Virus genome (UHGV): UHGV-0072281 | Length of the DNA: 64,000 nucleotides | Direction: 5' to 3' (one strand) | From: a virus | Part shown: in pieces, positions 9,619 to 42,297 of the stretch | Numbering within the stretch: position 1 is the stretch's first letter | How the letters are laid out: each line of letters opens with the position of its first letter | Position numbers and translations under genes: made by a program | Notes under the pieces: model-generated | The model's input: only the letters and a program-made list of their open reading frames with translations | Databases searched by the model: none | What the model was told of the DNA's origin: nothing

Positions 9619-9652
9619 TCTCCTTTATTCGAGACGTCCTTGTCCCGAGTCA

Positions 9653-14836: not shown

Positions 14837-14857
14837 CGTAAAGACTCCTACTTTTTA

Positions 14858-14894
14858 AATAAAATGGATACCCCTCCCCATTACAGGGAGGGGT
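14858..14894 (-). terminator. hairpin between the 1394-aa and 1727-aa fibre genes
   Basis: Minus strand: cccctccc-tgtaat-ggggaggg followed at ~8 nt by ttttattt. Confidence 0.45.
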
Positions 14895-14931
14895 TACCTA
14901 CGGACACACAACTGCCCGCAGGCAGCCTGTC

Positions 14932-17900: not shown

Positions 17901-19116
17901 ACGCTTTCGTCGGGTCGATAGCCCCCACGATAGGATCGGCTCGAGAACCTTTACCAGTGAAACTGATCCCATTACGGCCTTCGATATACACTTTGGAGTC
18001 ATCAGGGTCGCTACCGCCACCAGAACCCGCATCAGGGTCTTGTTGGTATTCCATAAGTGCGGTGGTGGTCAGTAACGGGTTACCGTTCAGGGTGAGTTTG
18101 TTCATCCCTAAAACATCGCCCGTTGACTCGATGCGTAACATGTTTTTACCCGCACGCCAGTTAATGTAACGTCCCGCGCTAGTGCCTTCCAAATGACCTA
18201 CCGCCAATACCACAGAACCGTTGGATTTTAACGTAAAGCCGTCATTCGCAAAAATGATTTCTGACTCACCGTTTTTCGAACGGAATTGTGCGCGGTTTCC
18301 TGACACCGTACAGTTAAACACACCCCGTACTTCCGAAGAAATCCAGTGGGAGATATACGTGTCAATAACCGACTGTGGTAAACGAAACGCTTTCAGCTCA
18401 TCCGTCAACGCTTTCAACTTTAACCCGTACGCCATAAAGGTGTCAGGGGTTTTCAGGTTAACGGGATGTGCATTAATTTGTGCACTTGTGGTTTCGTGTG
18501 GGTTCGTCGCGGCAATATGTGCTGGGTAGTTAAACGCTTCGATTTCTTTACCCAACGCGGTCACTAACGCTTTAACTTCAGCTAATTTATCTTTAATTAG
18601 CTGGTTAGCGTCATCGGTTTTCAGCTCGATATCGTGAATCGCCGACGCTAAGTATTTTTTGTTCAGCAAATCCGCCCAGGACGTTGCCGCAGGCGTAGCT
18701 GGGTATAGCGACGGTCTACCGTCTAACAACAACCAGTCTGCACTGACTGGGTTATTCAAATATTTCACCAACTCGTCGAGCATCTCAACGAACGGGTCGT
18801 AGAACGTACCGCCGAGCATTTGTCCTTCAAAGGTTACGATGCCTTTGATGGATGGGTTGATAAGGTGTACCCCACAATACACGTTGGCTGCTACCGAGTC
18901 ATCCAGTTCCGTCAGCTGATATTGTAGTTCGTAGTCCACCCCACGACTCAGTGGGGTGGTTGAACCCGGTTGTCTGACGACTAAGTCTTCAAAGAACGGG
19001 CGATGGTCTAAAATCACCACCCGGTCGTTGTTGTTTTCTGACCCGATGATACGCTCCTCTAAGAAGTGATTCTCGGTTTTCGTCCCCCGAGGATCGTAAG
19101 GATACGCTTTCATCAA
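14932..19116 (-). CDS. large tail fibre / tailspike-like structural protein
   Basis: 1394 aa ORF; N-terminal HRPFF...GVDYEL motif. Confidence 0.6.
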   Translation of the reverse strand: MMKAYPYDPRGTKTENHFLEERIIGSENNNDRVVILDHRPFFEDLVVRQPGSTTPLSRGVDYELQYQLTELDDSVAANVYCGVHLINPSIKGIVTFEGQMLGGTFYDPFVEMLDELVKYLNNPVSADWLLLDGRPSLYPATPAATSWADLLNKKYLASAIHDIELKTDDANQLIKDKLAEVKALVTALGKEIEAFNYPAHIAATNPHETTSAQINAHPVNLKTPDTFMAYGLKLKALTDELKAFRLPQSVIDTYISHWISSEVRGVFNCTVSGNRAQFRSKNGESEIIFANDGFTLKSNGSVVLAVGHLEGTSAGRYINWRAGKNMLRIESTGDVLGMNKLTLNGNPLLTTTALMEYQQDPDAGSGGGSDPDDSKVYIEGRNGISFTGKGSRADPIVGAIDPTKASTTEKGVVKLKTGKGTETVGVAATPASLTPYSTDLSGYVTKTTMINGKAMDDGSRTITKADLGLGQADNTADLDKPLSTALNTSVSGLADVGHHHGWSELGIYKASQSIYGIGRYATNQNGLVENRAVVPNILKELSARLDVVAAAIANAKEGTVTDFAAVKGADWRFNSQGTTISVQDLKYFYLLNGGKADGVVTGAIDLQTTPMFNWFSPNNQLELTWPTGKVSRGTGISWDGIVDPPTMGFQSVPVGKSATQMGEQSVVSVLAKIRVKAYQNRLFVYAAGGGRITIYVNGVVAATGESPLLMNYTTSLDVENYTIAVKAECSDTAKSAAVQFEVYDGDYPVYFSGPETRVELLQEFVTTHVGIRHYLYVNMLTGSLYSRAEPIQSIAVDPERGYIGYVDIVAGENYANKTVGFETTFDFGKSAEVSEHIDTRKAHGLSSVDWTLTDNPRLPLLNRAIAEPRACIFRKALTAGTGDVFHLVSRGLYTYAHNQNVKSSLQYVVIPEGATPYCWFTPFNPKENNAPTFEGSFAFDVDDVGGTQALAAAPDLVLCSSTQGSSVKRRYLRIDLTAKACKLGIGSRSDSAVTDIPLVMEESGETAVNATFKDVLFNGEETNAAILDLIGWGAARDKISANHAPRGMIRYRYNVSTRVLRLALSFSQFGTTTVKQRQLEIQFPFDLVDYFTGDGIGLSFKELSAKCRVTISHALIDPVTNNIDIDKYHYLRSLFESYLDSSVGYLADNKDADYSQSVIDPATYEISQKYRATESIALPTGQGSVAVSHDGQLPAQFFDRKLSRGALMAKNNELHTSWNNVWSTTKVAASRYRHKLILRFAQGVDKQQYRIAKVTGTIKSNWPGKVIIGDAGKDPFLASTDSAEFALSTNADVGKAITITPTDLRVGQDIYIVLDPPGNNPEGYELNFTCSLEVFDEKIYRQDYLNAQSFELRSGEKQFLMEKRNPYHITSKAWKWILSVLKRELNGKQLGDRT

Positions 19117-19126
19117 AAAATTCTCC

Positions 19127-22100
19127 TTAATCGCGAATGATTACCGCCTGCACTAAATTGTTGGTGTCGATAAACGACATTACGCGCTCCTTGTTAAGAT
19201 AAGGAGGTATCGGTAACGCAGCGTAATCCGCCAGGTTGTTATTAAACTCGGTTGCCACTAGCGCATTAAGCGTTTCAGGGTCTGAGCTTGTCCCGGCCAA
19301 TTCCATAACACGTACACGATTTAACGAGGAATAGTTGCTGATATAATCCAACAGCGTACCGTAGAGTTTATTCCCGGTTATGCTGTCCGCCGTAGAGCGG
19401 ATATTGGCACGCACTTCGTCCTCATAAAGTCCCCCTAATCCGTAGTAAATAGGGGTATACGGATCGTTAACGATAGGCGCGAGGTTGAACCCGGTTAAAC
19501 GGTCGGTCAGCGAGATTTTCTGCGTAGTACCACCTACCGCCGTACAGCTTACGTATTTATCTGCGGCAGATAAATACACCACAATAGTGTAAACAGTACC
19601 TGCTAAGGTCAGCGTTGCGTTAAACGTTAATTCGTTATTCGCATCACGCGTATGGCTAAATGACACATCGGGTTGTAACGTACTCCACGGTGCAGGTGTA
19701 ACACGTTTCGTTGGCGTGAAACCTAACACCACAGATTTCCCGTTACCGAAGTTTAAACCAAACCCGGCGTAACAATATTCACCATTACTGTCAGTTAAAC
19801 GATAGCCGCGAGTGATAAGTAACGACAACCGCATAAACTCGCCATCGGTGTTTTTCCAACAACCTAAAATGGTTTCTAACACCGTGCCGGTTTTTGCGTT
19901 GCTTTCGGTTTCCCAACTGACTCGCATCCCCGCATTGCTAAATAGGGGGAACAGGTTGTGGATAAATCCATGAACGTTATCACTTACCCCTTTCGCGTCA
20001 AACATCCACTTCGCCGTAAGCTGATCGTATTTCACACCGTCGAGCGCTTTATAACCGTCTCCAACCACATAACGCCAGTCTGCTTCACCACGCACAACCG
20101 CTTGGAGTCCAGAAGCCCAGCAGGGCGCACCTACTGTTAAATTGCTTAACCCCAACACCGCGCGCGAGGCATAACGTTGAATGTGTGCGTTATCGTTAGC
20201 GACGTGGTCTTTCAGCTCACGGAAATCGCCTAACCGCGTCACGTTACGCAACTCCACTACGTCCACTTCGGAAAGATCATTAACAACGAGCCTTCCCACA
20301 CGCGTCATGGTATCCGTCTCAGCTTGATTATAGCTGTCGTGAATAATGTACTTCGCTTTGTTATCGACAATGTCAACAAAAATCCCTGCGTAAACTTCCT
20401 TATTCAGATTCGGGAAACGTTCGGTGACGTTAACCGACATCAACGGTACGTCGTACGTTTCACCACCAATGAAATACGTGGAAGCAGGAAGTGTCACCAG
20501 GATATTGTCTTTAACCGTAACGTCAATTAAGTCGTTACCAGACTTACCAAAACGAATAATGTCAATGCGAGCGCCTGAGTCAACACCACCGACAGTGTTC
20601 TCCAAATCTTCAATCTGGGAAGTCTGCGCCATCACCACACTACTATCGAGTGCTAAAGTGTCATCATCCACATCCAGACCGAATTTAATCAGACCCCGTT
20701 TCGTGGTGTCTGCGTTAGCAACACCGAATACGGAAGACGGGTGTTGGTGAACCTTCGGTGAGTATTTGTCCAGCTCGGTCTGCTGTGCAACAGAAATCGG
20801 TAAGTCAACGTCCGGGGTATTCGCAACGTTACCTAAACCAAAGGTAATTTTGTCGATAGTAACCGAACTGGTAAGCTGCATGTCGTTGATGTACGACTTG
20901 GCGGCAACTAACTTACCGGTAAACTCTGCGTCCAGTTTTTCAATTAACGCGGGTGTCGCTGCAAGGTTTTCAGCCGTACCGAATTCGTCCGTTAACTGCC
21001 AGCAGGCTAAGGTAGTAACGTCATTGGCAACCGGAAGGATAAACGTTACGACAAAGGGCGATGCTTTAATCCCGCTGCCAGTAAGTTCTACGGTAGACGT
21101 AGACGCACCGTAGAACAGACCTGTACCGCCTGCGGTATTACCCGGCAAATACGGCCCGACTGTAGTGGGGTCTAAGAGCTTCTTACCACGCCACAGTAAT
21201 CCACGGTCATCAGGATATAGCACAAGCTGGTTATCGCCCGCCTGTAACGTTACCGGGTTGTTACCCACGTTAACGTCAGTAGAACCTTGACCGATGAACT
21301 TAATGGATTTCGGATCAACGACAAACTGGGCACCTAAACGTGTCTCGTCAACAACATCAGGTGCTTTCTTAATGGTAACCGTGTTACCTTTGTTTTGCGA
21401 ACTAATGGTGACAGCATCAGCAACGTTGTTAATCCACGTTTTAAAATGATATTGATTTTCCAACGCTTCTAGCGCAGAATCCATGTTATCAAAATTAATT
21501 CTGGCACTGTAAGTTTTACCGTTTACCGTAACGACAGCATCGAACACGTTCCCCGTGCGCTTCAACTGGAAACGTAATGAGAAATCGCTGTTAGGTATTG
21601 CCGGATCAGGAGCTTGAGAAATATACCTTACCTGCGGAACTGTACCAACAGTATTAAGGCTTAGCGAAACTTCAATAGAGATAGTATCGCCCCAGATTCC
21701 GGCTTTTATCTCGACAAACTTGCCAGCGATTGTGCCCGGGTTCTCGTAAAACCGCATAATCGCGGAACCGACCGCCTCATTACCCGACGCAGTTTTTATA
21801 CCAGTGACAATAAAGTCAATATCTTGCAGGTTAGCGGGTACCGCATTAAAAGAAGCACTAAATCCATTCTTCGTTCCTGTGTAACGAAGCGCGCCGTGAT
21901 ACCTGTGACCACTACTAACATAGTTTTCGCTAAAATAAGGGTTCACGTATTTAGACATCGAAACCGGATCAACTTCTGTCGTGAACGAAGTAAAACCGGG
22001 CAGCGTTCCAATGGTTCCGTCGGCCGTTTTCGTAGTTGACGTGCGCAGTAGTTTCTTTTGCGCAATCAATGTTTCTTGCGTTGGATACTTAGCATTAACA

Positions 22101-23452
22101 TAATCTGTTAACTGCGGCTTCGTTTTTCCGTAAGCTAACGCTGTATCCGTCGCAATACCATTCAACTCTAACGCACGGATCGCCCCCCACGTGTCGCTGT
22201 GCGGGTTGTCCTTACGTGTAACGTGTTCGTGTGCGGGTGCGTTACGATACAACTGCTCAACTAACTGATGGTACTTAACGATTAACTGATAAACGTCATT
22301 ACTTACGTCAGCTTCTGGCGAACCAGGTAACGCAAGGAATTGAGCGTAATCGTTTTCAGCCGCCCACCAGTTTAAGTTAACGTTGGTTTTGTATTTCAGC
22401 CACTTCGCAACGTCTGTTTTGCTGTAACCTGCTGAGAATTCGTCTGGCGGTGTGTCAACGTTAAACGTATAGTCCATGGACTGTTTGTTAGTCGTCACCT
22501 CGATAACGTATACACCGTTACCCGGTTGACGGACAACGCTAAACGTTAACTCGCCTTTTAATTCATCGTCGGTCAAACCGTTGATTAACGTATAATCGTA
22601 ATCGGTTGAACCACTGCCTAACGCAACCGTCAGTCGTAGGCCAATTTTACGTTGTTTTAATTGGAGACGAAGGATACTTGCGCCACCGTTCGCGTAGCAC
22701 AACATCCAATCGATTTGTTCATTCGGGTTAATACTCCCCATATTCGGAAAAATAGCCGGAATACGGTATTTCATCGACAGGGAATATTCATTTAACGTGG
22801 TGGTTTTGTACGTAACGGAGAAACGACGTTTGGCGGTGTTGTAGGTATACCCACCTTTGTTATCGTACGTTGCGTACTGTTCAGACGTGATAACCGTACC
22901 ATTAGCACGATGTTCGATATCTAACGTGTTGCGCGCAATCGGGTCTAACCGATTCACCACGTTGCCTAACGAATCACCTAAGCCTGCAATGGCCTGCATT
23001 AATTCCAGTTCACCTTTCCAGTTTTCCCAGTCGAACTGAATGTCAACCGGTGGAAAGTAAACATCACCAATAACGGTATCCCATTGACACGCAGACGGGT
23101 ATTTATCTTTATTGAGTTCGCGTTCTGCGGTAATCTGTTCTTGGGTCGCTTCACCACAACCTACGGCGTGGTAATCTACCGTGAAATTCGATTTGTATTT
23201 GTCGTTAACAATCCAAATCATCCCGTGCACGAGATAGGCTGTGCGCAACATACCGGTCTCGTACGGGTGTGTAATAACGTAATCGTCGCCTAAGGTCAGT
23301 ATTTTGCCGCCGCTCTTGACCACCAGGGATGTGGTGAAAAAAGGGGCGTGGGCAGGTACCAACATTCGGTACTTCGTACCAATGACGGCGACCGCTTCAC
23401 CGGTTATTTTATTCCCCGGTTCTTTGAAGTGTGGGTCTAGGACGACAGCCAT
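19127..23452 (-). CDS. large tail fibre / tailspike-like structural protein
   Basis: 1441 aa ORF; N-terminal HAPFF...GDDYVI motif; first gene of the minus-strand block. Confidence 0.6.
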   Translation of the reverse strand: MAVVLDPHFKEPGNKITGEAVAVIGTKYRMLVPAHAPFFTTSLVVKSGGKILTLGDDYVITHPYETGMLRTAYLVHGMIWIVNDKYKSNFTVDYHAVGCGEATQEQITAERELNKDKYPSACQWDTVIGDVYFPPVDIQFDWENWKGELELMQAIAGLGDSLGNVVNRLDPIARNTLDIEHRANGTVITSEQYATYDNKGGYTYNTAKRRFSVTYKTTTLNEYSLSMKYRIPAIFPNMGSINPNEQIDWMLCYANGGASILRLQLKQRKIGLRLTVALGSGSTDYDYTLINGLTDDELKGELTFSVVRQPGNGVYVIEVTTNKQSMDYTFNVDTPPDEFSAGYSKTDVAKWLKYKTNVNLNWWAAENDYAQFLALPGSPEADVSNDVYQLIVKYHQLVEQLYRNAPAHEHVTRKDNPHSDTWGAIRALELNGIATDTALAYGKTKPQLTDYVNAKYPTQETLIAQKKLLRTSTTKTADGTIGTLPGFTSFTTEVDPVSMSKYVNPYFSENYVSSGHRYHGALRYTGTKNGFSASFNAVPANLQDIDFIVTGIKTASGNEAVGSAIMRFYENPGTIAGKFVEIKAGIWGDTISIEVSLSLNTVGTVPQVRYISQAPDPAIPNSDFSLRFQLKRTGNVFDAVVTVNGKTYSARINFDNMDSALEALENQYHFKTWINNVADAVTISSQNKGNTVTIKKAPDVVDETRLGAQFVVDPKSIKFIGQGSTDVNVGNNPVTLQAGDNQLVLYPDDRGLLWRGKKLLDPTTVGPYLPGNTAGGTGLFYGASTSTVELTGSGIKASPFVVTFILPVANDVTTLACWQLTDEFGTAENLAATPALIEKLDAEFTGKLVAAKSYINDMQLTSSVTIDKITFGLGNVANTPDVDLPISVAQQTELDKYSPKVHQHPSSVFGVANADTTKRGLIKFGLDVDDDTLALDSSVVMAQTSQIEDLENTVGGVDSGARIDIIRFGKSGNDLIDVTVKDNILVTLPASTYFIGGETYDVPLMSVNVTERFPNLNKEVYAGIFVDIVDNKAKYIIHDSYNQAETDTMTRVGRLVVNDLSEVDVVELRNVTRLGDFRELKDHVANDNAHIQRYASRAVLGLSNLTVGAPCWASGLQAVVRGEADWRYVVGDGYKALDGVKYDQLTAKWMFDAKGVSDNVHGFIHNLFPLFSNAGMRVSWETESNAKTGTVLETILGCWKNTDGEFMRLSLLITRGYRLTDSNGEYCYAGFGLNFGNGKSVVLGFTPTKRVTPAPWSTLQPDVSFSHTRDANNELTFNATLTLAGTVYTIVVYLSAADKYVSCTAVGGTTQKISLTDRLTGFNLAPIVNDPYTPIYYGLGGLYEDEVRANIRSTADSITGNKLYGTLLDYISNYSSLNRVRVMELAGTSSDPETLNALVATEFNNNLADYAALPIPPYLNKERVMSFIDTNNLVQAVIIRD

Positions 23453-25241: not shown

Positions 25242-26207
25242 TCAGCGTGGGCCTGAAGTTGGGCCATGGACGCCGTCATGGATGTGTACGCTGAAGGTAA
25301 TACCGGAAATAACCGCATCCTTAACCGTAAAGATACCCACGCCTTCGCCCGTACCACCGTATTTGAAGTTCTTAGCAACTTCCAAATTACCGGTGAACAT
25401 CGCTTCTTTACCTTCTTGCTTAAAGTTCGGCGTTTTATACGTTGTTGAACCAGAAGCTTCAGTTAGCCAGGTTTCTGTTTTAAAGGTGACCGATTTCGAC
25501 GCTTCGGTATTCCGAACTTCGCATTTCTCATTAATCGTTTTCGTTTCCAGGTTAATCGAACGTTTTGCGTAAATGAATGCATCTTCTTTATTGATGTTCA
25601 CTTTTGAAAGCATCGCGTTCTCAAAACCTAAATCGTCTTCCACCGAGTTAATGTAATACTTATTCCCTTTATGGTCAACGCACTGCCACGACCCGTTAGC
25701 GTTATCGAATTGGAATAACCACGCCGCTTTCTCCCCATTCACCATACTTGTTCTTAGGGTAACGTGTTTGTCAATCGTTGAGACGTTTAACACATACGCG
25801 TTCGACAAGTCATCCGCCATCTGGTTTTCAGGGTCAGCCGACCACGCGTAAACCGCATCTTCTAATCGCTTAACGTTAGCGAAATTCAGATCAATCCAAA
25901 AATAAATATCCGTTTTCCCCAAACGTAACAAGATAACGTAATCTTCTCGTTTAACGTCAGGGGAATTAATTCGGTTGGAGTTAAACTTCCACCACTTTGC
26001 CGTTATCGTGTTACCCGTCTTAATGGTTAGGTTATCTGTTGCACCAGATGTTTCATGCGTCTTTTCAGTTGCTGAAGAAACAGATTGTACCACGGTAGGG
26101 TTAGCAAAGTTAGTTTCAATTGGTATCACTTTTACCCGATCTGTACCACGGGGTTTGTCTTCCGCGACGATACCAATTGAGAAAAAATCAACGCTGGATT
26201 TCTCCAT
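25242..26207 (-). CDS. hypothetical protein (possibly virion-associated)
   Basis: 321 aa ORF; AAGGAA SD; His-rich C-terminus HIHDGVHGPTSGP. Confidence 0.55.
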   Translation of the reverse strand: MEKSSVDFFSIGIVAEDKPRGTDRVKVIPIETNFANPTVVQSVSSATEKTHETSGATDNLTIKTGNTITAKWWKFNSNRINSPDVKREDYVILLRLGKTDIYFWIDLNFANVKRLEDAVYAWSADPENQMADDLSNAYVLNVSTIDKHVTLRTSMVNGEKAAWLFQFDNANGSWQCVDHKGNKYYINSVEDDLGFENAMLSKVNINKEDAFIYAKRSINLETKTINEKCEVRNTEASKSVTFKTETWLTEASGSTTYKTPNFKQEGKEAMFTGNLEVAKNFKYGGTGEGVGIFTVKDAVISGITFSVHIHDGVHGPTSGPR

Positions 26208-26235
26208 TAGGTCGTTCCTTAGATCGGAAATAGAT

Positions 26236-26258
26236 TCAGATATATTTTACTTAAGTGA
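26236..26258 (+). promoter_or_regulatory. recurring promoter-like motif TCAGATATAT(T/A)TTACTTA(A/G)GTGA, copy 1
   Basis: 22 of 25 positions identical to the copy at 30581..30604; in the long non-coding gap upstream of the family B gene block. Confidence 0.3.
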
Positions 26259-26260
26259 AT

Positions 26261-26287
26261 AGGAGCTGAAGTGCGAATTCAGCTCCT
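26261..26287. other. perfect 10-bp inverted repeat (hairpin) in the largest non-coding gap
   Basis: aggagctgaa-gtgcgaa-ttcagctcct; no flanking U-tract, so not called a terminator. Confidence 0.5.
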
Positions 26288-26595
26288 ATAGGCACGTTTC
26301 TTTCGAAACGGAGTTACCACGTGATTAAGAGACAGACCAATGTCTACTGAGAAGAAAAGCGGATTGGACGAAGTCATCGAACTGTTCAAACGCTACAACC
26401 CAGCTATTCCTCGGTAATCATAGTATTACTTAAAATTTACAGATTGTCCCTTTATTCTGCTACTCGGGATACCGGTAGGGGGTAGGGGGCAATATGTATA
26501 CGGATATAAATAGCGGAGGTATACGTAGTATACCGACATACTCTTCCCAGAGGAACGTAGTGACTTCCTTATTCCAGTTTAGGAGAATAAACCCC

Positions 26596-27330
26596 ATGAG
26601 AGAATTATTAGACGATATCTTTACCAACACCAGTTTAGAACTTTCTTCTACGCTGGTTAACGAGCTAATAAAACAATACCAACCTGCTAAGTTAATCTCT
26701 GTCTGGATAGTTAAACCCGAAGAATATCCAGACAGTGACATTATCGACTGTATGATTGACGAATACGCTATAGGCAGTTACGCCAACCAGATCTACTTTA
26801 TTCTTAATACCGAAACCAGCATCATGTTAATCTATAAGTTGATCAGTGACGCCGAACTTGAAGTTGTGGCTGACCACATTCGTCTTCTTGCGAATGCGCC
26901 TACTGGTTACAAAGTTGCGCTTATTGGTGACGGTTGGCCTTTGCCACCGCTATTCACTTACTTCCCTCTGTTTAAACATGGGATAGGGTTACTCCGTCAT
27001 GCAGAAAATCTTCCCGATAACGTAGAGTTATCACTGCTTGGGCCCGGCATCGATCTTTATCCATTAAAAGACGAGGGCACGCTATATGGTTTGCGCATCT
27101 ATGTTTCTGTGTTAAAGGGATACCGCGTTATTGAATTGATTGCATCAGACTTAGCAAAACAGATCCCCGAAGCAGAAACGATTTCTAAAGCCACCCACCT
27201 GGTTGAAATTAACCCGGACGATCCGTTATTACGGTATCACAAAGAAATTGACCTTCGTAAAATCGCCACGATAAGAGGATGGGATTGTGCTGAGATTACG
27301 AATAATAACCTGTTACTAGTACGTAAGTAA
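26596..27330 (+). CDS. hypothetical protein, paralog family B member 1
   Basis: ORF 26494..27330; start moved to ATG 26596 after AGGAG SD; C-terminal GWDCAEI...LLLV resembles the GW...QLLF motif of the next three genes. Confidence 0.6.
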   Translation: MRELLDDIFTNTSLELSSTLVNELIKQYQPAKLISVWIVKPEEYPDSDIIDCMIDEYAIGSYANQIYFILNTETSIMLIYKLISDAELEVVADHIRLLANAPTGYKVALIGDGWPLPPLFTYFPLFKHGIGLLRHAENLPDNVELSLLGPGIDLYPLKDEGTLYGLRIYVSVLKGYRVIELIASDLAKQIPEAETISKATHLVEINPDDPLLRYHKEIDLRKIATIRGWDCAEITNNNLLLVRK

Positions 27331-27350
27331 AAAACCTAAAGGAGAATAAA

Positions 27351-27908
27351 ATGTCTACTATTGAACTGAAACAACAAGTTATTGGGTTTATTAAGCTGGG
27401 TACAGGTAAACACCGACTTGATTATCCTTGCGTTATACAGTCTAACATTATCCCGGTCGATACAATGATTACCGGTCTTCAGGTTGAAGAATTTGATGGA
27501 GATGCTGTGGTTTGGGAACGCCATTTCACACGACTTAATTATCGTAAAGTCGGAGATAGTTTTACCGAAATATTCCGTCATCTGTTTTCCGGTACCGGAT
27601 GGAAAGTAACGAGTGCGTTCTACGGTGGCAATGTTGTTACGCTTCTAGACAGAGGAGATGCACGTTATCTCGTGAACTTTACTTTCGCAAGACACTATGC
27701 GTATTTCCCTAACCCTCTTACGTGTACGTTAAGTAACCCAGGAATACTACTAACAGATAAAGAAGCAGACGTTCTACTCGCCGAACTGCGAAAAGACGGT
27801 TGCGACGTTGACGATTGGGAAACATTAATCGCGGTTGCCAAAGCACACGGTTGGTACAGCGTACGTAAAATCGGTCAGCAGTTATTATTCTTAGCTTACC
27901 CTGTTTAA
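27351..27908 (+). CDS. hypothetical protein, paralog family B member 2
   Basis: 185 aa; CTAAAGGAG SD; C-terminal GWYSVRKIGQQLLFLAYPV. Confidence 0.65.
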   Translation: MSTIELKQQVIGFIKLGTGKHRLDYPCVIQSNIIPVDTMITGLQVEEFDGDAVVWERHFTRLNYRKVGDSFTEIFRHLFSGTGWKVTSAFYGGNVVTLLDRGDARYLVNFTFARHYAYFPNPLTCTLSNPGILLTDKEADVLLAELRKDGCDVDDWETLIAVAKAHGWYSVRKIGQQLLFLAYPV

Positions 27909-27938
27909 GTAACAAAAAAACCTAAAGGAGAGTAAAAA

Positions 27939-29090
27939 ATGCGAAATATTATTTCTAAACCAGGACATGTCAAGATCCTAAAAGAACTGATGGACAGATG
28001 CTATAATCGGACTTGGCCTCTGCCAAGCTTAACCATCGAGTCTTCATTACAACGCGAGTTGTTTGGTTATAACTTGGGCTGCTGCGTACTGAGTGAATAC
28101 GATGAGATTATCGCGCCTGTCGATGTCTGTACTTACGATGAAGAAATTGAAGGTTACCAGTTCGAGGTTTACACAAATTCTGGACTAAATTACCGTAAAC
28201 TCGTTGTTAGAGAAAAGAGTAGCGGCCGGAAGATTATGTTTAAGGTCTTCCCAAGCGGTAAAGTCAGTAGTTTATGTTTTCAGCTTGAGCAAGTGTCCTT
28301 TCACGGCGCAGCTATTTTAACTAAAGCAGAACGTGCGTTATTAAGCGGGTTAATCGGCTTTGAAGCAAAAACCATCAAAGTAGAACAGGAACTCACACGA
28401 AACGATTTCGGCTCGACCTGGTACGAAAGTTTCTTCCGCTACGAAATTTTAAGTGATAAAGCTATCAAACTCACTTACCGTTCTACCGACGATCTCGTTT
28501 ACCACATTTTAATTAGCGGCGAACCCCATCTGATTATTGAAGACAAAGGAGAAAATCAAATGTCTGGCTTAAGAGACGAATTAGCCCAATTCATTCGTGA
28601 CGTCGAAGAGAAAAGCAAGAGCGATCACATTTTCTCACAACGCTATCCTGAACTTATTGACGAAACCACCGATAGTGTCGTCGATGTTATACGCATTTTC
28701 CCAAGTGGTTTTGCAATCTACCGACTGCCTAGCGTTAATCAGCTTAAAGTCATGGAAATGCTAAAAGACGTTTTAGCAGAAGCGGGTTGGGAATATCGTT
28801 TCGATTGCAATTTCGAAGGGATGGCGTTATTCGTTACAAAGAAAAATTATACGTTGTCAATCGATCTGCCCAAAAGTCAATATTACAGTTTCTTCCCAAA
28901 AGCGTATGACCGCACTGAAAAAGAACCTGCGTTGTTACTCGATGCGGCAGAATCCAATACGCTAATGATGCGTCTGCGGATGGTTGACAAAAAGTTAAAT
29001 ACCGGCCATCTAACGACGATCGGTAAAGATTACGGTTGGAAATCTGTCGAACCGTACGGCAGTCAGCTGCTGTTTGTTGCTGACCTTTAA
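27939..29090 (+). CDS. hypothetical protein, paralog family B member 3
   Basis: 383 aa; CTAAAGGAG SD; C-terminal GWKSVEPYGSQLLFVADL. Confidence 0.65.
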   Translation: MRNIISKPGHVKILKELMDRCYNRTWPLPSLTIESSLQRELFGYNLGCCVLSEYDEIIAPVDVCTYDEEIEGYQFEVYTNSGLNYRKLVVREKSSGRKIMFKVFPSGKVSSLCFQLEQVSFHGAAILTKAERALLSGLIGFEAKTIKVEQELTRNDFGSTWYESFFRYEILSDKAIKLTYRSTDDLVYHILISGEPHLIIEDKGENQMSGLRDELAQFIRDVEEKSKSDHIFSQRYPELIDETTDSVVDVIRIFPSGFAIYRLPSVNQLKVMEMLKDVLAEAGWEYRFDCNFEGMALFVTKKNYTLSIDLPKSQYYSFFPKAYDRTEKEPALLLDAAESNTLMMRLRMVDKKLNTGHLTTIGKDYGWKSVEPYGSQLLFVADL

Positions 29091-29116
29091 TAAGTAAAAA
29101 TACACTTTCTCTAACT

Positions 29117-29142
29117 GCCGCGCTTTAGTCGCGGCTTTTGTT
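29117..29142 (+). terminator. intrinsic terminator
   Basis: gccgcg-ctttagt-cgcggc then ttttgtt. Confidence 0.6.
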
Positions 29143-29157
29143 AAGAAGGAAAAAGAA

Positions 29158-29931
29158 ATGAAAATCCATTTAGATCACCTCTTTAAATCTGAACCGTATA
29201 TGGTTAAAGGTTCGCTGGCTTCATTGTTGCTAGACGATAGATTTCATCGAACGCTGCAATTACAATCGGTCGAATCCGCGCCAACAGAAGACGTGGGTCT
29301 TTATCAACGTATCACTTATACACGTGGAGAATATCGGCGATATAAACCTGATACGCTAACCGTTAAGCTCTGGCAAGTGGCCACAGGCAAAGTATTAACT
29401 TATCGCGCTGTTGGTCTGTACTACGTTGAACGTGCCTACGCATGGTTAGAAGAAGTTAAAGAAATGGATTACGACCGTTTAAGCAAAAGACTACGCGATA
29501 ATAACGCCAGTTTACCGCTACGTAATTATTTCTCCACAATTGAAAATAGTCGTTGTTTCGTTTCACGCGAATCCATGATATTGCCTGGGGCTGATGTTCA
29601 GACGACACTAAAAGATGTGGTTGTGAGGAAAATCTTTCATGAATCTGAACACGTTGGATTTCGTATCTATTTAACGCACAAGAGGCCATTTACCGTGATT
29701 CATCTTGTTACCGTACCCGAAGGCTCGGCAGTCGTACGTGAACTTCCTGACGCACGTGACCGTAGCCCTAATGAGCCACTTTACTTAATGTCAGGAACAA
29801 AATCAGAATCTTTGATGTCCCGTTACAGCATGGTTGATGTTGTTGATACTGCTATGAAATTAGGTTGGAAAGAAGTACAGCAACACGGCAAACAATTGCT
29901 GTTTATCGCAGATGTAAATCTCAATAACTAA
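29158..29931 (+). CDS. hypothetical protein, paralog family B member 4
   Basis: 257 aa; AAGGAAA SD; C-terminal GWKEVQQHGKQLLFIADV. Confidence 0.65.
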   Translation: MKIHLDHLFKSEPYMVKGSLASLLLDDRFHRTLQLQSVESAPTEDVGLYQRITYTRGEYRRYKPDTLTVKLWQVATGKVLTYRAVGLYYVERAYAWLEEVKEMDYDRLSKRLRDNNASLPLRNYFSTIENSRCFVSRESMILPGADVQTTLKDVVVRKIFHESEHVGFRIYLTHKRPFTVIHLVTVPEGSAVVRELPDARDRSPNEPLYLMSGTKSESLMSRYSMVDVVDTAMKLGWKEVQQHGKQLLFIADVNLNN

Positions 29932-29943
29932 AGAGGTGGTACC

Positions 29944-30522
29944 GTGTACCGATTAATAGAAATGAGAAAAGACGTTTGGTTGGAAAACCTCGTCGATGGG
30001 GAGCTTGAGGGAATAGAGCTTTCCTTACCAGAGAGAGCGGACACGGTATTGGCCTTTCTGGTAAAACAGGCAGACCGTGAACCGGTAGGAATCTTCACTG
30101 TGGACTATAAAGACCCGCGAGGGATTCATTTACGGAACATTTGCAGTGGTTTGGAAAACTTACCGGCTAATCCGTTCTTAAACTACGCAAAACGTAAACT
30201 CCGACCGGGACAACACCTCTGGGTAACGTTAGCGCCTGACATTAGAATCATGCGTGACGATTACTCGGCGTTTGTACAGGCAACGAAAGTCAGTCTGTAT
30301 AACCCGAACGCAGAGCGTACCGATATGCCGTTTATAATTACCTTAGAAGACGATGGAACGCAAGAAGGTATTGAGGCAATTACGGAATTAGTAAACTCTT
30401 ATCCGGTTGCCACTATCGAGTTAGAAAACCCAGGTCGTTTACAACTGGGTGACCTGCTCGAATGGATTGAACTGAATACAGAATTCTTAATCAATTCTCG
30501 TCAGTATCGATTCGACGTTTAA
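29944..30522 (+). CDS. hypothetical protein
   Basis: 192 aa ORF with GTG start after AGAGGTGG SD; followed by a strong terminator. Confidence 0.55.
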   Translation: MYRLIEMRKDVWLENLVDGELEGIELSLPERADTVLAFLVKQADREPVGIFTVDYKDPRGIHLRNICSGLENLPANPFLNYAKRKLRPGQHLWVTLAPDIRIMRDDYSAFVQATKVSLYNPNAERTDMPFIITLEDDGTQEGIEAITELVNSYPVATIELENPGRLQLGDLLEWIELNTEFLINSRQYRFDV

Positions 30523-30526
30523 CAAC

Positions 30527-30557
30527 GGTGGGGTGTAAACCCCACCTTTTATTTTTT
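30527..30557 (+). terminator. intrinsic terminator
   Basis: ggtggggt-gtaaa-ccccacc then ttttatttttt. Confidence 0.7.
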
Positions 30558-30580
30558 GTTCTCTAACATTAAAAATAATC

Positions 30581-30604
30581 TCAGATATATATTACTTAGG
30601 TGAG
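30581..30604 (+). promoter_or_regulatory. recurring promoter-like motif, copy 2
   Basis: tcagatatatattacttaggtgag, ~50 nt upstream of the SD of the secreted-protein block, just after a terminator. Confidence 0.3.
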
Positions 30605-30651
30605 AGTTAAGATTAACTCTTTTACTTGTTAACCCCACGAGGAGAAAAACA

Positions 30652-31113
30652 ATGAAAATTTTCACTTCCTTTTTAATCGTTCTTTTCGCAATCGGATTCA
30701 ATACTGCACACGCTGCAATCAATAGTTGGGAACAACTACAGAACCCAGGTCAGGCTGTTTACGAAATTGAAGACACCGCCGGAAACGGACTGTCTATCAA
30801 CTGTGACACTGAAACTGCGAATCGCAAATTTTACGGTCGCATGGTTTGGTATTACGGGGAACCTGTAGGTGCAACTAACGCTGAAGACAACACGCTGGAT
30901 ATCGTCGTAAATGGCAAAACTTACAACATCCCTACCGTGGATGGTAGTGACAAAGCAGAACACGCTTGGGTGGCTTTCGTTAATGCTATCGGCAATGCCA
31001 AAACTTTCAGTGTGAATATCAACGGAAACGAAGCCGCTAACTTTACCGTAGAAGGTGAACGTCTGTCTGAAACTTTCTTCCAGAACTGTGGACACACCCG
31101 TCCTAACAAATAA
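30652..31113 (+). CDS. small secreted protein (signal peptide)
   Basis: GAGGAG SD; N-terminus MKIFTSFLIVLFAIGFNTAHA/A typical of a signal peptide. Confidence 0.65.
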   Translation: MKIFTSFLIVLFAIGFNTAHAAINSWEQLQNPGQAVYEIEDTAGNGLSINCDTETANRKFYGRMVWYYGEPVGATNAEDNTLDIVVNGKTYNIPTVDGSDKAEHAWVAFVNAIGNAKTFSVNINGNEAANFTVEGERLSETFFQNCGHTRPNK

Positions 31114-31141
31114 GTATTAATCTTTTTTAGAGTGCGTGAAA

Positions 31142-31528
31142 ATGAATATCAGAACTATACTTTATACCATCATTATTTTCTGTGCAGTCGGTATTACTGC
31201 CACTTATGCTTTCGGTGAATCGGATGTCCGCTATTACGAACCGGCTCCTGACTCACCGATTATCAACCCGGATGAGACGCCTACGTTAATGCGCAGTTTC
31301 GGTAAACTGCAAGTTTATCGTTTAGTGCGTGGTGAAACGTGTACGGGATTGCTCATTGCTGACACTCGTGCACAAGTCTACCAACGTCTGACGGATATCG
31401 CCTGCGAACAACCAAAAGTCATGTCGGTCAGTATTCATCCGTTAGAGGTCGGTAACTATACTGCTGTGGACTTCTTCCATAATGCAGAACTGATTGGTCG
31501 TATTACTTTAAATCGTAGCGCTGAATAA
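31142..31528 (+). CDS. small secreted protein (signal peptide)
   Basis: ATG 31142 (track shows GTG 31136); N-terminus MNIRTILYTIIIFCAVGITATYAFG. Confidence 0.6.
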   Translation: MNIRTILYTIIIFCAVGITATYAFGESDVRYYEPAPDSPIINPDETPTLMRSFGKLQVYRLVRGETCTGLLIADTRAQVYQRLTDIACEQPKVMSVSIHPLEVGNYTAVDFFHNAELIGRITLNRSAE

Positions 31529-31546
31529 TTTAATGGAGAATTTACA

Positions 31547-32029
31547 ATGAAACGTTTACATACCCTGATGCTCTTCGTGGCTATTCTGTTCACGGGCTTT
31601 AACTTTAACGCAGAAGCGGCTAGTGTAAAACAAGCACTTAGCTGTAACCCGGAAGCCTGGGCTGAACAACCTGGTGCGTGTCCTGATATCAATACGCTCT
31701 ATACCGACGACGCTACTTATAAAGCCGCAATCGATAAAGCGTTGAAACCTGTCGGACTAGACGGGTTATTCGGTAAAGATGGCGTGATGGATGGTCCTGG
31801 CGGCGATGTTTTCCCTGTACAAATCAACGGCAAAGTCTGGCTTGAGTCTACCTCTTGCAAAAGCAATGCTTGTGGTTGGGAATACATCACGACGCTTTAT
31901 AACCCGCAGACCCATGTCGTGGTAGGTTACTATTACAACGTCGACCCAGGTTACCTGGTTTGGTTTGGCGATATCGGCGTTAATGAATTCGCCTATCTGG
32001 TTAAGAAATACGTAGCTACGGTTAATTAA
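31547..32029 (+). CDS. small secreted protein (signal peptide)
   Basis: GGAG SD; N-terminus MKRLHTLMLFVAILFTGFNFNAEAA. Confidence 0.65.
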   Translation: MKRLHTLMLFVAILFTGFNFNAEAASVKQALSCNPEAWAEQPGACPDINTLYTDDATYKAAIDKALKPVGLDGLFGKDGVMDGPGGDVFPVQINGKVWLESTSCKSNACGWEYITTLYNPQTHVVVGYYYNVDPGYLVWFGDIGVNEFAYLVKKYVATVN

Positions 32030-32044
32030 TTTAAGGAGTCTGTC

Positions 32045-32455
32045 ATGAAAACGTTTATCAAAACTTTACTCGTTGCTGTAACTGTTCTGTTCTCTCTTAA
32101 CGTAGCAGCAAAAACAGTAAAACTACCGGCGGGTATCAAATACGTCAACAGTACCGATGAATTCTACTGCACAGAAATTGACGGTCTGTATTGCCAGACA
32201 AAGAATTTGTTTGAATACAAAGGTAACAGATATGTTTTCGTTGTTGAGCAAGGCGGTGCCTGGTGCTACGACAGCCCTATGTCGGTACTCAACCTGGAAA
32301 CTGGGAAAGCACAGAAAATTGAATACAAAGACAACCAATTGTGTTCAGGCGAAAACAAACCGTTCTTCAAAATCAAAAATGGTGTCCCGACTGTAGGTAT
32401 TATCGACACTTCTGGAGCACCAATCGTTGTAGCTCAGGACAAACTTAAAATCTAA
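32045..32455 (+). CDS. small secreted protein (signal peptide)
   Basis: AAGGAG SD; N-terminus MKTFIKTLLVAVTVLFSLNVAA. Confidence 0.65.
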   Translation: MKTFIKTLLVAVTVLFSLNVAAKTVKLPAGIKYVNSTDEFYCTEIDGLYCQTKNLFEYKGNRYVFVVEQGGAWCYDSPMSVLNLETGKAQKIEYKDNQLCSGENKPFFKIKNGVPTVGIIDTSGAPIVVAQDKLKI

Positions 32456-32465
32456 GGAGTAAACC

Positions 32466-32855
32466 ATGCGTCTTATCTGCGCTTTGTTGGCGTTTTTCTC
32501 AATCGGAGTTATGGCTTCTACACACATCGACGATTTATTACTTACCCCGGCAACGAACACAGACTATCACTACAACCCACCGGGTTTTGAAGTCTGCGAA
32601 GGCGATGCAGGCGAATGCCAAGAAGTTGGCGCAGATGGACGCTATATACTCGTAAAAGCAGACGGAGGAACAACCTGCCCTGCGGGTTATTATTTCGTAC
32701 TTGACTCTGTAGCAAAAGAGGTACTTCCTGTAACGACCAAAACGTGTGACCCCACGGTTGTATTAACCCTTGCGAAAAGCAAATCACGTGACCGTCATCT
32801 TATCGTCATCGAAGAACGCGGTGAGATGTTAGGCGCTATCGAATTAGATTACTGA
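32466..32855 (+). CDS. small secreted protein (signal peptide)
   Basis: AAGGAG SD; N-terminus MRLICALLAFFSIGVMAS; followed by terminator. Confidence 0.65.
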   Translation: MRLICALLAFFSIGVMASTHIDDLLLTPATNTDYHYNPPGFEVCEGDAGECQEVGADGRYILVKADGGTTCPAGYYFVLDSVAKEVLPVTTKTCDPTVVLTLAKSKSRDRHLIVIEERGEMLGAIELDY

Positions 32856-32866
32856 TGTGTAGTCTT

Positions 32867-32904
32867 GACCCCGGTTCGTGCCGATTCGTCCGGGGTCCTT
32901 TTTA
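32867..32904 (+). terminator. intrinsic terminator
   Basis: gaccccgg-(15-nt loop)-ccggggtc then ctttttacg. Confidence 0.65.
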
Positions 32905-32933
32905 CGACTTGTTTTACCTAAAGGAGAATTAAA

Positions 32934-33410
32934 ATGCGTTTGTCTAATGTTTATCAAGCAGCCCAATTCCATCATGAACTGACGGCTAAGCCTGAGTATA
33001 TTCGCCACAACTTAACGGTGGCTTGGAAACTGTTATTGATTGCTGATGCTGCACGACACAACGACCAGGAAACCATTATCAAAACCGTGCGTACTTTACG
33101 CCCTATTGACCTGGAAACAATTTGGTCGTTTGACTTAACTCGAATTTATCATCGTCGCTTTAATGCGGCGGTGGATGCGATACGTCCTTATTTCCACTAT
33201 TTGCAAGCAACATCAGACTGTGGTCCATCCTTAGAGTGGGTCTTGGTACAAAGCGTATGGAGCGATTACATTTATCTCCTATCTTTAGAGACGGGTGAAT
33301 GCATTATCGCTAACGAGGTATTCTCAACCAACGCCGAAATGTATCGTTCCCACGCTACTATCCAGGGTGTCTCACAGCCTATCTTATCACTCACGCACTT
33401 AGGGCTGTGA
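32934..33410 (+). CDS. hypothetical protein
   Basis: 158 aa; CTAAAGGAG SD; flanked by terminators. Confidence 0.6.
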   Translation: MRLSNVYQAAQFHHELTAKPEYIRHNLTVAWKLLLIADAARHNDQETIIKTVRTLRPIDLETIWSFDLTRIYHRRFNAAVDAIRPYFHYLQATSDCGPSLEWVLVQSVWSDYIYLLSLETGECIIANEVFSTNAEMYRSHATIQGVSQPILSLTHLGL

Positions 33411-33418
33411 TTAGCCCG

Positions 33419-33446
33419 GCCCCGCTGTGTACGGGGCTTCTTTTTT
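33419..33446 (+). terminator. intrinsic terminator
   Basis: gccccg-ctgtgta-cggggc then ttcttttttg. Confidence 0.65.
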
Positions 33447-33464
33447 GCCAAAGGAAACTGAAAC

Positions 33465-34073
33465 ATGAACGAAATTACTTTGGTTCGTTTTATCGAAGCG
33501 ATGCGACTAAACGAAGCTAATCCTCACTCTCCGTTATTCATCGATTTAATGGAGGAAGAAGTCGAAGGGTTCTTAGCGTACCCGCGTTTGAAAGCGTATT
33601 TCGAACGTAAAACACCAACCGCTTACGAGAAGTTGATGTACGCGTTAGACAACCGTACTACGCTGAACACCACACCGTTTAAAGCGCTGGAAGCAATAGA
33701 CCCTACCGGGGGTGCAGGTATCCCACAACGTGTTGTGTTCTACTACATCGACAACGGCCGTATTAAAGCCGACGTTGTAAACTGGATCTCCGAAGGGGAA
33801 ATCCCAGAAACGCGTACTTTTAACCTCTGTCCGGTAGAAGAAGGTTGGGTCGCAGGAACGCATTATTCCTATCCGTATCAAAGCATCAAATCACCTTATC
33901 TGTATCCGGTGTATTTAGATGACGTTACGCCAGGAAAATGTATTCCCGTTACCAATCTGATTTGCTTACTGACGATGGAAGTTGTTGCGTCAGACGCAGG
34001 CCAGGCTTGGGTTGAGCAATCGAAAAATATCCAAAACTGGCAGCAGATGGGTTACAAACTCTACCAGCCGTAA
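33465..34073 (+). CDS. hypothetical protein
   Basis: 202 aa; AAGGAAA SD; followed by terminator. Confidence 0.6.
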   Translation: MNEITLVRFIEAMRLNEANPHSPLFIDLMEEEVEGFLAYPRLKAYFERKTPTAYEKLMYALDNRTTLNTTPFKALEAIDPTGGAGIPQRVVFYYIDNGRIKADVVNWISEGEIPETRTFNLCPVEEGWVAGTHYSYPYQSIKSPYLYPVYLDDVTPGKCIPVTNLICLLTMEVVASDAGQAWVEQSKNIQNWQQMGYKLYQP

Positions 34074-38326: not shown

Positions 38327-38851
38327 ATGCTTACCTCACTCGGTAAGACCGTTATGCTAACGATACTTCCAGAATCGGTTATTGACAACGACCTGTTTAA
38401 CGCCCCTGAGCGCTTCAAGGTCGTTACGATAAATTGTGTAGGGGCAATGGGTCGGGGTATCGCTTTAGCGTGCAGAGAACGCTATCCTGGGCTTTATCAG
38501 GACTACCGAGAACGTTGCTTCGCTAACGAGATACGAATAGGGAATGTGTACGTTTATCCCGAGGAAAACTGCATTCTCTTACCAACTAAAACACATTGGA
38601 AACTGAAATCCCAGGTTTCTTATGTTATCGCGGGTATCACCGCGTTGGCAGATGCCGCAGAAAACTTAGAGGGTGGGGTGGCTTTACCGCCGTTAGGGAT
38701 GGCCAACGGTTGGTTGACAAAAGCTGAATGTCAACAAATCTTTTTGTTTATCGAAAAGAAACTCGTACCGAGGAGACAACAATACTGTTTCTATTTACCT
38801 GATCCGCTTTACCAAGAAGCAAAACCTTTAATTCCAAACCTTTTTAAATAG
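38327..38851 (+). CDS. macrodomain protein (putative ADP-ribose-binding/hydrolase, TARG1/DarG-like)
   Basis: 174 aa; INCVGAMGRGIALACRERYPGLY and later ALPPLGMANGWL resemble macrodomain signatures as remembered; start may be ATG 38354. Confidence 0.55.
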   Translation: MLTSLGKTVMLTILPESVIDNDLFNAPERFKVVTINCVGAMGRGIALACRERYPGLYQDYRERCFANEIRIGNVYVYPEENCILLPTKTHWKLKSQVSYVIAGITALADAAENLEGGVALPPLGMANGWLTKAECQQIFLFIEKKLVPRRQQYCFYLPDPLYQEAKPLIPNLFK

Positions 38852-38866
38852 ATATTATCATTAGGG
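38850..38866 (+). promoter_or_regulatory. AGATATTAT motif overlapping stop codon of macrodomain gene
   Basis: tagatattatcattaggg; same TAGATATTAT core at 48321. Confidence 0.25.
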
Positions 38867-38951
38867 CACACAACAAAGGAGTACCAGCTGTCCGCGCCGT
38901 GATTTCGTTCTACGGAATACGGAAATGTATAAATCCAACTGGAGAACTAGT

Positions 38952-39638
38952 ATGTTTCGTATCTTCTTTCTTTTACTGGTAACACTTTTCGCGTTTAACG
39001 CATACGCATCCAAATCCGCGCCCAGTACCAAACACCATCGTGAATTCGAAATGATTCAAGACCGTTTCGAACGGGTAAAACCGTTGATTGTGGAAATCTC
39101 TCGAAAGCAGGGTGTTGATCCTAATTTGATGACCACGCTAATCTATCGAGAGTCACGGTTTAATCCGAAAGCGTATAATCGAACGTCTAAAGCGCACAGT
39201 CTGGTTCAGATGCTGCCGAGCACAAAGCGTAATTTGCTAAAACTCTACGGTGCCGAAATCGGACTTAGCCGCAATGCAGATTTGTACAATCCTCGTAATG
39301 CGGTGCTATTGGCTTCCGTCTACGTTAAACATTTAGAAAAGGGGTTAACTAAACGACTCAAACGCAAGCCCACTATTGCAGAAATAGCATTGGCTTATCA
39401 CTGGGGTGAAAGCGGTGCACACGCCAGGATTAAAAGCAAGTCTCGGGCAGCACAACGAGAAATGGCGAGCTTTATGAAAGATGCAACGTTCTACAGTGCA
39501 AAAATCAACAAGCCTGTAGCATCTCGTCAGCTTGCGTTTGCGAAGAAACCAGAACGCCAGATTCAGTTAGCAGAAGTTAACCGAATTTGGGATACGATAA
39601 ACACCAGTTTTCCATTTAAACAAGGAGTCACCCTTTGA
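38952..39638 (+). CDS. lytic transglycosylase (SLT-like domain) with signal peptide
   Basis: ORF 38925..39638; start moved to ATG 38952 after GGAGAA; MFRIFFLLLVTLFAFNAYAS signal-like; YRESRFNPKAYNRTSKAHSLVQMLPST resembles SLT catalytic region. Confidence 0.6.
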   Translation: MFRIFFLLLVTLFAFNAYASKSAPSTKHHREFEMIQDRFERVKPLIVEISRKQGVDPNLMTTLIYRESRFNPKAYNRTSKAHSLVQMLPSTKRNLLKLYGAEIGLSRNADLYNPRNAVLLASVYVKHLEKGLTKRLKRKPTIAEIALAYHWGESGAHARIKSKSRAAQREMASFMKDATFYSAKINKPVASRQLAFAKKPERQIQLAEVNRIWDTINTSFPFKQGVTL

Positions 39639-42286: not shown

Positions 42287-42297
42287 AATAAAAGCTA

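Follow-up and report, generated by a model that had tools for sequence, protein, structure and literature searches.

Every RNA polymerase (RNAP)-encoding jumbo phage carries an AT-rich motif of ~10 nt, centered near -10 and located upstream of its early operons (PMC7598289). Wherever transcripts have been profiled, this motif is an early promoter, which is presumably read by the virion RNAP (vRNAP) that is injected (PMC7598289; PMC8244752; PMC11512511). In phiKZ and 201phi2-1, a motif of this kind is found ~10 nt upstream of mapped early starts that are used by the vRNAP (PMC7598289, PMC8244752, PMC11512511), and the early core of phiKZ is TATATTAC (PMC7058600 Table 2). Cappable-seq of 201phi2-1 reveals conservation at -10, -20, and -30, and the genes downstream of its early promoters are mostly hypothetical (PMC11512511). 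Early promoters have also been predicted for the Pseudomonas phage OBP (BSHAWWWWWTTTYARRYAKATATTATYWWADTG) and for the Klebsiella phage N1M2 (TBYAWWWWWTTTCARRYAKATATTATYWAAGTGWA) (PMC7058600 Table 2). For no phage has the vRNAP been purified or shown to recognize promoters in vitro (PMC5312081).

Here we describe five copies of such an element in the 64,000-nt stretch of the virus genome UHGV-0072281 that was analyzed as a whole (the window). The five sites, P1 to P5, are very probably early promoters of a phiKZ-like jumbo phage that are read by its own multisubunit vRNAP.

Results

The proteins encoded in the window are collinear with the 138-196 kb region of Salmonella phage SPN3US, at 25-87% protein identity, and one virion protein shows 83% identity to phiEaH2 and 77% to SPN3US. 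The window proteins taken as queries match those of IMGVR_UViG_3300014543_000002 (107,349 bp) at 100% identity, and the contigs of the relatives at ~80% nucleotide identity measure 221-225 kb. When positions 26000-34000 were compared with known phages by megablast, only 55 bp matched; these are P2, and the matches fall at intergenic spots in SPN3US, phiEaH2, and relatives. Besides this promoter element, no DNA-level match to positions 26000-34000 was seen among the GenBank/INPHARED phages. The vRNAP of SPN3US has been assigned to gp42/218/240/241/244, with the virion protein gp218 as its beta-C subunit (PMC5105663). The window encodes a homologue of gp218; genes for the other vRNAP subunits lie outside the window, and it holds no non-virion RNAP gene.

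55582-56250, plus strand: gene for the SPN3US gp218 homologue (tblastn, 85% identity over 221/222 aa)

On the basis of the collinearity with SPN3US, the virion-protein identities, and the gp218 homologue, the sequence identifies the window phage as an uncultivated phiKZ-like (Chimalliviridae-type) jumbo phage with its own polymerases and a relative of SPN3US.

Several features of the window are side observations that concern gene content. Three tandem paralogous ORFs at 202-1924 (188, 179, and 176 aa) have one and the same counterpart in SPN3US, the single gp160 region, to which they show 48%, 36%, and 35% identity, and this arrangement looks like a local triplication. Two PHROG-confirmed radical-SAM genes are found within the regions 3181-5410 and 7018-7929. 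The ORF at 7018-7929 and the intervening ORF at 4487-5410, which was outside the PHROG scan, both match the SPN3US gp164 region; therefore, one of them is an extra copy relative to SPN3US. Finally, four consecutive virion-protein paralogues of 401, 1727, 1394, and 1441 aa occupy 8413-23452 on the minus strand; they share N-terminal and internal PHROG domains and correspond to SPN3US gp167-gp170.

The best common register of the repeated motif is the 25-mer TCAGATATATATTACTTAGGTGAGA, taken from 30581-30605. All five copies listed in a preliminary description of this DNA are present, on the plus strand and ahead of plus-strand genes. They are given below with their matches to the 25-mer, their weight-matrix scores, and their mismatches to the OBP consensus.

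26213-26263, plus strand: predicted promoter P1; core 26236-26260, TCAGATATATTTTACTTAAGTGAAT; GTG 26255-26257; 21/25, 35.2 bits, 3 mismatches
30558-30608, plus strand: predicted promoter P2; core 30581-30605, TCAGATATATATTACTTAGGTGAGA; GTG 30600-30602; ATG 30652; 25/25 (reference copy), 53.7 bits, 3 mismatches; the best copy
57393-57443, plus strand: predicted promoter P3; core 57416-57440, TCAGACAGATATTATTTACGTGAGA; GTG 57435-57437; ATG 57460; 21/25, 24.3 bits, 3 mismatches
48293-48343, plus strand: predicted promoter P4; core 48316-48340, TTAGATAGATATTATTCAGGTGTAG; GTG 48335-48337; ATG 48361; 18/25, 20.3 bits, 3 mismatches
38842-38865 (OBP match), plus strand: predicted variant promoter P5; TTTTAAATAGATATTATCATTAGG; below 15/25, 2 mismatches

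P1 and P2 agree at 21 of 25 positions, rather than the 22 of 25 first counted. The motif is likewise present at the third copy, P3, though the register proposed there, which started at 57421 and laid CAGATAT on CAGATAT, is off by 5 nt. ATATTA and GTGAGA are both brought into alignment by an ungapped register from 57416, which is clearly the better one. The copies at 38849 and 48321 had been described as short cores; they are not truncated, as both match the full 24-nt published consensus. In P5, the upstream half and the core are those of the consensus, with AGGG in place of the GTG region. P2 includes the phiKZ core TATATTAC exactly and is preceded by the A-rich tract TTAAAAATAAT. Two core subclasses are seen in the window and in SPN3US: the TATATATTAC type (P1, P2) and the ATAGATATTAT type (P3, P4, P5).

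The OBP consensus TTTYARRYAKATATTATYWWADTG owes nothing to this window and therefore provides a fully independent test. With up to three mismatches, it has five matches in the window, which are the same five sites; all are on the plus strand and none on the minus strand, against 0.01 expected from 100 shuffles. The stricter N1M2 consensus, also with up to three mismatches, matches P1 only. The pattern YARRYAKATWTTAYYYARGTG, which was derived from the window sites themselves, gives four matches with up to two mismatches, against 0.02 expected. The core RRYAKATATTAY occurs five times against 0.22 expected; four of these occurrences are promoter sites, and P1 is one base off. The best background match to the 25-mer on both strands is 16/25.

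A weight matrix was built from 64 sites, all in other phage contigs. The four strong sites score 20.3-53.7 bits against a null maximum of -0.1; only the scores at 57416 and 48316 are fully independent in this comparison, as the training set held orthologues of 26236 and 30581, and the training sites were retrieved by a pattern informed by the window, which leaves the OBP-consensus search as the only fully independent test. In the null set of 100 simulated 64-kb sequences, the best score averaged -12.8 and was never above -0.1. By the weight matrix alone P5 is not significant (-6.8). It was retained because it matches the OBP consensus, is identical in the relative L028, and has an orthologous site in SPN3US.

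Two further candidates on the minus strand, TGATATTTTTTAC at 7008-7020 and AACAGATATTAC at 9314-9325 within an ORF, have poor scores and no conserved blocks on their flanks; both were treated as chance matches. Searches of the window with Rfam (gathering thresholds) and ARAGORN returned nothing, and the motif is therefore not part of a known RNA gene.

By a crude gene call, ~92% of the window is coding. All five sites are located on the plus strand within or abutting intergenic gaps and point toward a downstream plus-strand gene. P1 is found in the divergent gap between a minus-strand baseplate gene (25242-26207, PHROG baseplate match) and the plus-strand block, and P3 in a divergent gap that adjoins a minus-strand gene at 56923-57387 (unknown). 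P4 overlaps the last codons and the TAG stop (48321-48323) of the ORF at 47652-48323, and P5 overlaps the TAG stop (38849-38851) of the ORF at 38327-38851, as had been noted for both cores. Counted from the last G of GTG, the next ATG downstream comes after 83 nt for P1, 50 nt for P2, 24 nt for P4, and 23 nt for P3; the first ATG after P1 belongs to a 25-codon ORF at 26340. The genes downstream of the sites are almost all PHROG "unknown function", and P5 is located ahead of a transglycosylase/endolysin-like gene. The minus-strand block of virion and baseplate genes at 1996-26207 contains no motif copy.

Some leader regions show features of their own. The 25-codon ORF (26340-26417, MSTEKKSGLDEVIELFKRYNPAIPR), which is situated after P1 and ahead of the first long gene, is present in the relative L025, and the whole segment that contains it is deleted in the relative L033. 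The 5' UTR at 26425-26496, which belongs to the ORF at 26494-27330, is near-identical in L025 and L033, even beside deleted neighboring sequence. Folding gives a stable hairpin (-27.1 kcal/mol, z -4.6) in which the G-rich ribosome-binding region GGUAGGGGG is paired; the UTR has no Rfam match and could be a translational control structure. The P5 leader (38866-38955) is almost identical in L028 and carries a strong Shine-Dalgarno-like AAAGGAG ~70 nt ahead of the likely start; the alignment suggests that the gene after P5 starts at ATG 38952 rather than at 38925. The fold of this leader is no better than that of shuffles (z -0.3).

The search of related phages that the preliminary description called for recovers the motif in SPN3US, phiEaH2, OBP, and other contigs of IMG/VR. 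In the complete SPN3US genome, there are 17 consensus matches on the plus strand and none on the minus strand; the weight matrix finds 19 and none, respectively. Three SPN3US sites are orthologous to window sites: 165683, before gp180 (P2); 174950, before gp198 (P5); and the weight-matrix match at 191577-191627, before gp221 (P3). An exact-pattern scan of IMG/VR yields 75 stretches, 56 of which are in contigs of at least 125 kb, often with several per contig, and the contigs with the exact pattern include SPN3US, phiEaH2, and OBP. The motif is restricted to jumbo-phage contigs, with matches almost only in contigs over 125 kb. A text search of the literature for the exact motif strings of the SPN3US group retrieved no relevant paper.

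Among the relatives at ~80% nucleotide identity, the promoter stretches are near-identical and the flanking coding DNA varies. P1 is conserved in L025 and L033. The stretch that contains P5 is identical in L028, with diverged flanking coding DNA, and P4 is conserved in L081-L083 with varying flanks. Indeed, the P4 core AAATAGATATTATC is kept in L084 despite a downstream protein at only 39% identity.

Other SPN3US copies head operons that contain RNAP genes, one at 15610, ahead of gp22-gp23, and others at 23806/25222, ahead of gp30 to gp34/gp35. The products gp23 and gp34/gp35 are annotated as RNAP beta/beta', and since the vRNAP is assigned to gp42/218/240/241/244 (PMC5105663), these are by elimination the non-virion RNAP. 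The position of the motif ahead of the non-virion RNAP operons fits an early-promoter model, which requires their early expression.

The operon that follows P1 is closed by a terminator located 25 nt upstream of the P2 core, and the same layout of terminator and then promoter is seen in SPN3US and phiEaH2.

30527-30556, plus strand: intrinsic-terminator-like hairpin and T-run, GGTGGGGTGTAAACCCCACC TTTTATTTTT

Elsewhere in the window, a terminator stem, CCCTACTCC-loop-GGAGTAGGG with T-rich sequence after it, recurs at 41685-41706, 42296-42323, and 61621-61648. The same stem is found upstream of promoter copies in SPN3US and phiEaH2 (L001, L002), and it recalls the conserved terminator motif of phiKZ (PMC10914365). 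A further terminator-like hairpin and T-run at 48397-48419 (AATCCCTCGTTGTTCGAGGGATT CTTTTATAAA) is only 36 nt inside the ORF at 48361-49098 and ~60 nt past the predicted P4 start, and may be an attenuator; alternatively, this ORF may have a miscalled start codon.

We also observed that most strong copies are directly followed by a hairpin, 1-3 nt from the GTG, in which the sequence is variable and the pairing is kept (loci L001-L077 and the window).

26259-26289, plus strand: P1 leader hairpin (12-bp stem, 7-nt loop)
30602-30621, plus strand: P2 leader hairpin (8-bp stem, 4-nt loop)

The 80-nt leader of P1 folds with -27.8 kcal/mol (z -4.5), and compared with L025/L033 its hairpin shows two compensatory double substitutions (A-T to G-C; G-C to A-T). 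At the sites orthologous to P2 in L028, L033, and SPN3US, the stems differ in sequence. The P3 leader has a weak stem, and the P4 leader has no hairpin. Because a covariation count on a curated structural alignment of sequences chosen by their fold would be circular, the hairpins were assessed by energy and by an anchored-stem comparison against shuffles. For 62 non-window sites, the 40 nt from the GTG have a mean of -7.0 kcal/mol versus -3.3 for shuffles (p = 6e-10), and the first hairpin starts at nt 1-3 in 48/61 non-window sites. At 54 of 99 sites, a stem of 6 bp or more without interruption is anchored at nt 1-4, and these stems have 41 different arm sequences. A narrow literature search found no description of such a leader hairpin.

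Discussion

The element in the window matches the published consensus, is not explained by chance, is strand-specific and intergenic, and is conserved at orthologous positions in relatives. The idea of phage promoters in the preliminary description is borne out by these results, as the motif matches the early-promoter consensus of both OBP and N1M2 and includes the phiKZ core. From work on phiKZ, 201phi2-1, and AR9, we infer that the reader is the vRNAP, that the sites act early, and where exactly RNA synthesis starts. The vRNAP would be packaged in the head and injected along with the DNA, and would recognize an asymmetric element of ~35 bp. This element would consist of an A/T-rich tract at about -30 to -20, TTCAGAYAK, a near-invariant ATATTAC/ATATTAT core near -10, and YTARGTG. 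RNA synthesis is expected to begin at the last G of GTG or at a neighboring base, at about 26257, 30602, 48337, and 57437, each placed to ±2 nt by analogy with published descriptions of phiKZ and 201phi2-1; the P5 start, where GTG is absent, would be near 38865. The polymerase would then transcribe short plus-strand operons of mostly uncharacterized genes that end at hairpin-plus-T-run terminators.

The main rival to this reading is that the sites belong to a different temporal class, such as that of middle genes, and are read by the non-virion RNAP or a modified polymerase. It could apply to all sites or only to the ATAGATATTAT subclass (P3-P5), and we consider it improbable in either form. 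The existence of two sequence subclasses in the window and in SPN3US is in its favor, as is the endolysin-like gene after P5, an odd product for an early promoter; moreover, unexpected promoter classes have been found for some 201phi2-1 genes (PMC11512511). However, the middle and late motifs of phiKZ are different, with AAAATTACC or TACT near -22 and TATG at +1 (PMC4666361; PMC8244752), and both subclasses of the window are inside the degenerate OBP/N1M2 early consensus (YAKATATTATY). Within the early-promoter reading, the sites with the ATAGATATTAT core may form a subclass that is weaker or differs in timing. The AT-rich hexamer in the core (TATATT or TATTAT) also raises the question of host sigma-70 promoters with a strong -10, used by the bacterial RNA polymerase. 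A simple scan does select TTTTCA-17-TATTAT at 57402-57430 as a 9/12 match in P3, and one more match occurs just upstream of P4. No pair of a TTGACA-like -35 placed 16-18 bp before a TATAAT-like -10 is found at P1, P2, or P5, and P1 and P2 are without an acceptable -35. Furthermore, the conserved TCAGA upstream and TTAGGTG downstream are not sigma-70 determinants, and the motif occurs in jumbo-phage contigs only. The window is also poor in sigma-70-like sites: at 25000-64000, their number is below that of shuffles (23 versus 32.5 ± 5.5; 19 versus 29.9 ± 6.0), as would fit a phage with no reliance on the host polymerase. Infection of the phiKZ type is independent of the host RNAP (PMC13282480), and host promoters are a very unlikely explanation.

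Any repeated and conserved intergenic motif could be the site of a phage DNA-binding regulator, that is, an operator for a repressor or activator rather than a polymerase recognition element, and in SPN3US the "putative transcriptional regulator" gp101 is just downstream of one copy. This alternative, which the preliminary description had placed beside promoters, is not favored by the data, and we give it very little weight. The motif is asymmetric, without a dyad; its orientation always follows that of the downstream genes (5:0 in the window and 17:0 in SPN3US); and it is preceded by terminators and located at a fixed short distance of 23-83 nt from the first downstream start codon, which fits a promoter. 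In phiKZ and 201phi2-1, primary 5' ends have also been mapped to homologous motifs (PMC8244752, PMC11512511). The lowest probability of all is assigned to a signal at the RNA level, either an RNase processing site or a translational element within longer transcripts, in which case the 5' ends would be processed rather than primary. Two copies do overlap the 3' end of an upstream gene on the same strand. Their layout, AU-rich single-stranded RNA with a hairpin after it, is reminiscent of RNase E substrates. Yet P1 and P3 are in divergent gaps without an upstream co-directional transcript, P2 comes after a terminator, and conservation reaches the A-tract ~20-30 nt upstream; in addition, the methods that enriched the corresponding 5' ends in phiKZ and 201phi2-1 are selective for primary (triphosphate) ends.

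If transcription starts at the GTG, the leader hairpin may be a 5'-terminal stem-loop of the mRNA. Stem-loops in this position slow 5'-end-dependent mRNA decay in E. coli. We regard it as possible, though rather doubtful, that the hairpin is a functional, selected part of early transcripts. If it were, it could protect vRNAP transcripts from 5'-end-dependent decay, aid promoter escape, or serve as a tag by which early mRNAs are handled once they are outside the early infection vesicle. As it is absent at some sites, the hairpin is unlikely to be required for promoter recognition.

The sites provide a ready transcription map of an uncultivated jumbo phage, with five predicted early starts and their operons, and they mark a boundary at 26.2 kb between a minus-strand block of virion genes and a plus-strand block of early and DNA-metabolism genes. 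The near-identity across the SPN3US, phiEaH2, OBP, and N1M2 groups suggests that the promoter specificity of the vRNAP is strongly conserved while the surrounding genes turn over. This conservation is of use in annotating metagenomic jumbo phages and in building phage-specific expression cassettes.

Comparison with Known Promoters

The sigma-70 extended -10 promoter shares with the window sites an AT-rich hexamer ~10 nt before the predicted start, and by analogy the AT-rich core probably works in the same manner, as a melting or recognition element. The window motif has no -35, its flanks are unlike sigma-70 determinants, and it is outside this family; phiKZ-type phages have no sigma factor homologue (PMC13282480). 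The promoters of the N4 vRNAP are part of a similar strategy, in which a small number of phage-specific early promoters are read by a virion polymerase that is injected. In N4, however, the polymerase is a single subunit and a DNA hairpin is located upstream of the start, whereas in the window phage the polymerase would be multisubunit, the polymerase homologue encoded in the window being a beta-like subunit, and the hairpin is downstream of GTG and of the predicted start and is absent at some sites, including P4.

The phiKZ early promoters have been mapped by primer extension, dRNA-seq, and ONT-cappable-seq, and consist of the core TATATTAC, an extended -10, and a T-rich upstream tract. P2 has exactly this core and P1 has TATTTTAC; the AT-rich core and the A/T-rich upstream region are common to both phages, as are the phage family and the vRNAP genes. 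They differ in that little is conserved beyond the core in phiKZ, while in the window and the SPN3US group TCAGA is kept on the upstream side and TTAGGTGAGA on the downstream side; experiments have mapped the phiKZ sites, and those of the window are predicted from sequence. The early promoters of 201phi2-1, TTAWTAVAA..TTTRARR.BTATATTACDWHDGTG, mapped by ONT-cappable-seq (PMC11512511), have the same three blocks (about -30, -20, and -10), GTG in the start-site region, and hypothetical downstream genes; the host of that phage is Pseudomonas chlororaphis, and the upstream block has diverged.

The predicted promoters of OBP and N1M2, themselves bioinformatic predictions only, are nearly identical to the window sites over ~24 nt, with an A/T tract, TTYARRYAK, ATATTAY, and a GTG ~5 nt further. 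Single sites of N1M2, ...TTTCAGACCTATATTACTTAAGTGAT among them, are similar to the copies in the window. Their setting is also alike, with many copies in a single orientation before operons of hypothetical genes in jumbo phages that have their own RNAPs. OBP and N1M2 have ATATTAT where P1, P2, and the strongest copies of the SPN3US group have ATATTAC, the phiKZ form, and these two strongest window sites and the strongest SPN3US-group copies carry the longer conserved tail TTAGGTGAGA. The motif is a known element of a well-described family, and it leaves the known mechanism of these phages unchanged.
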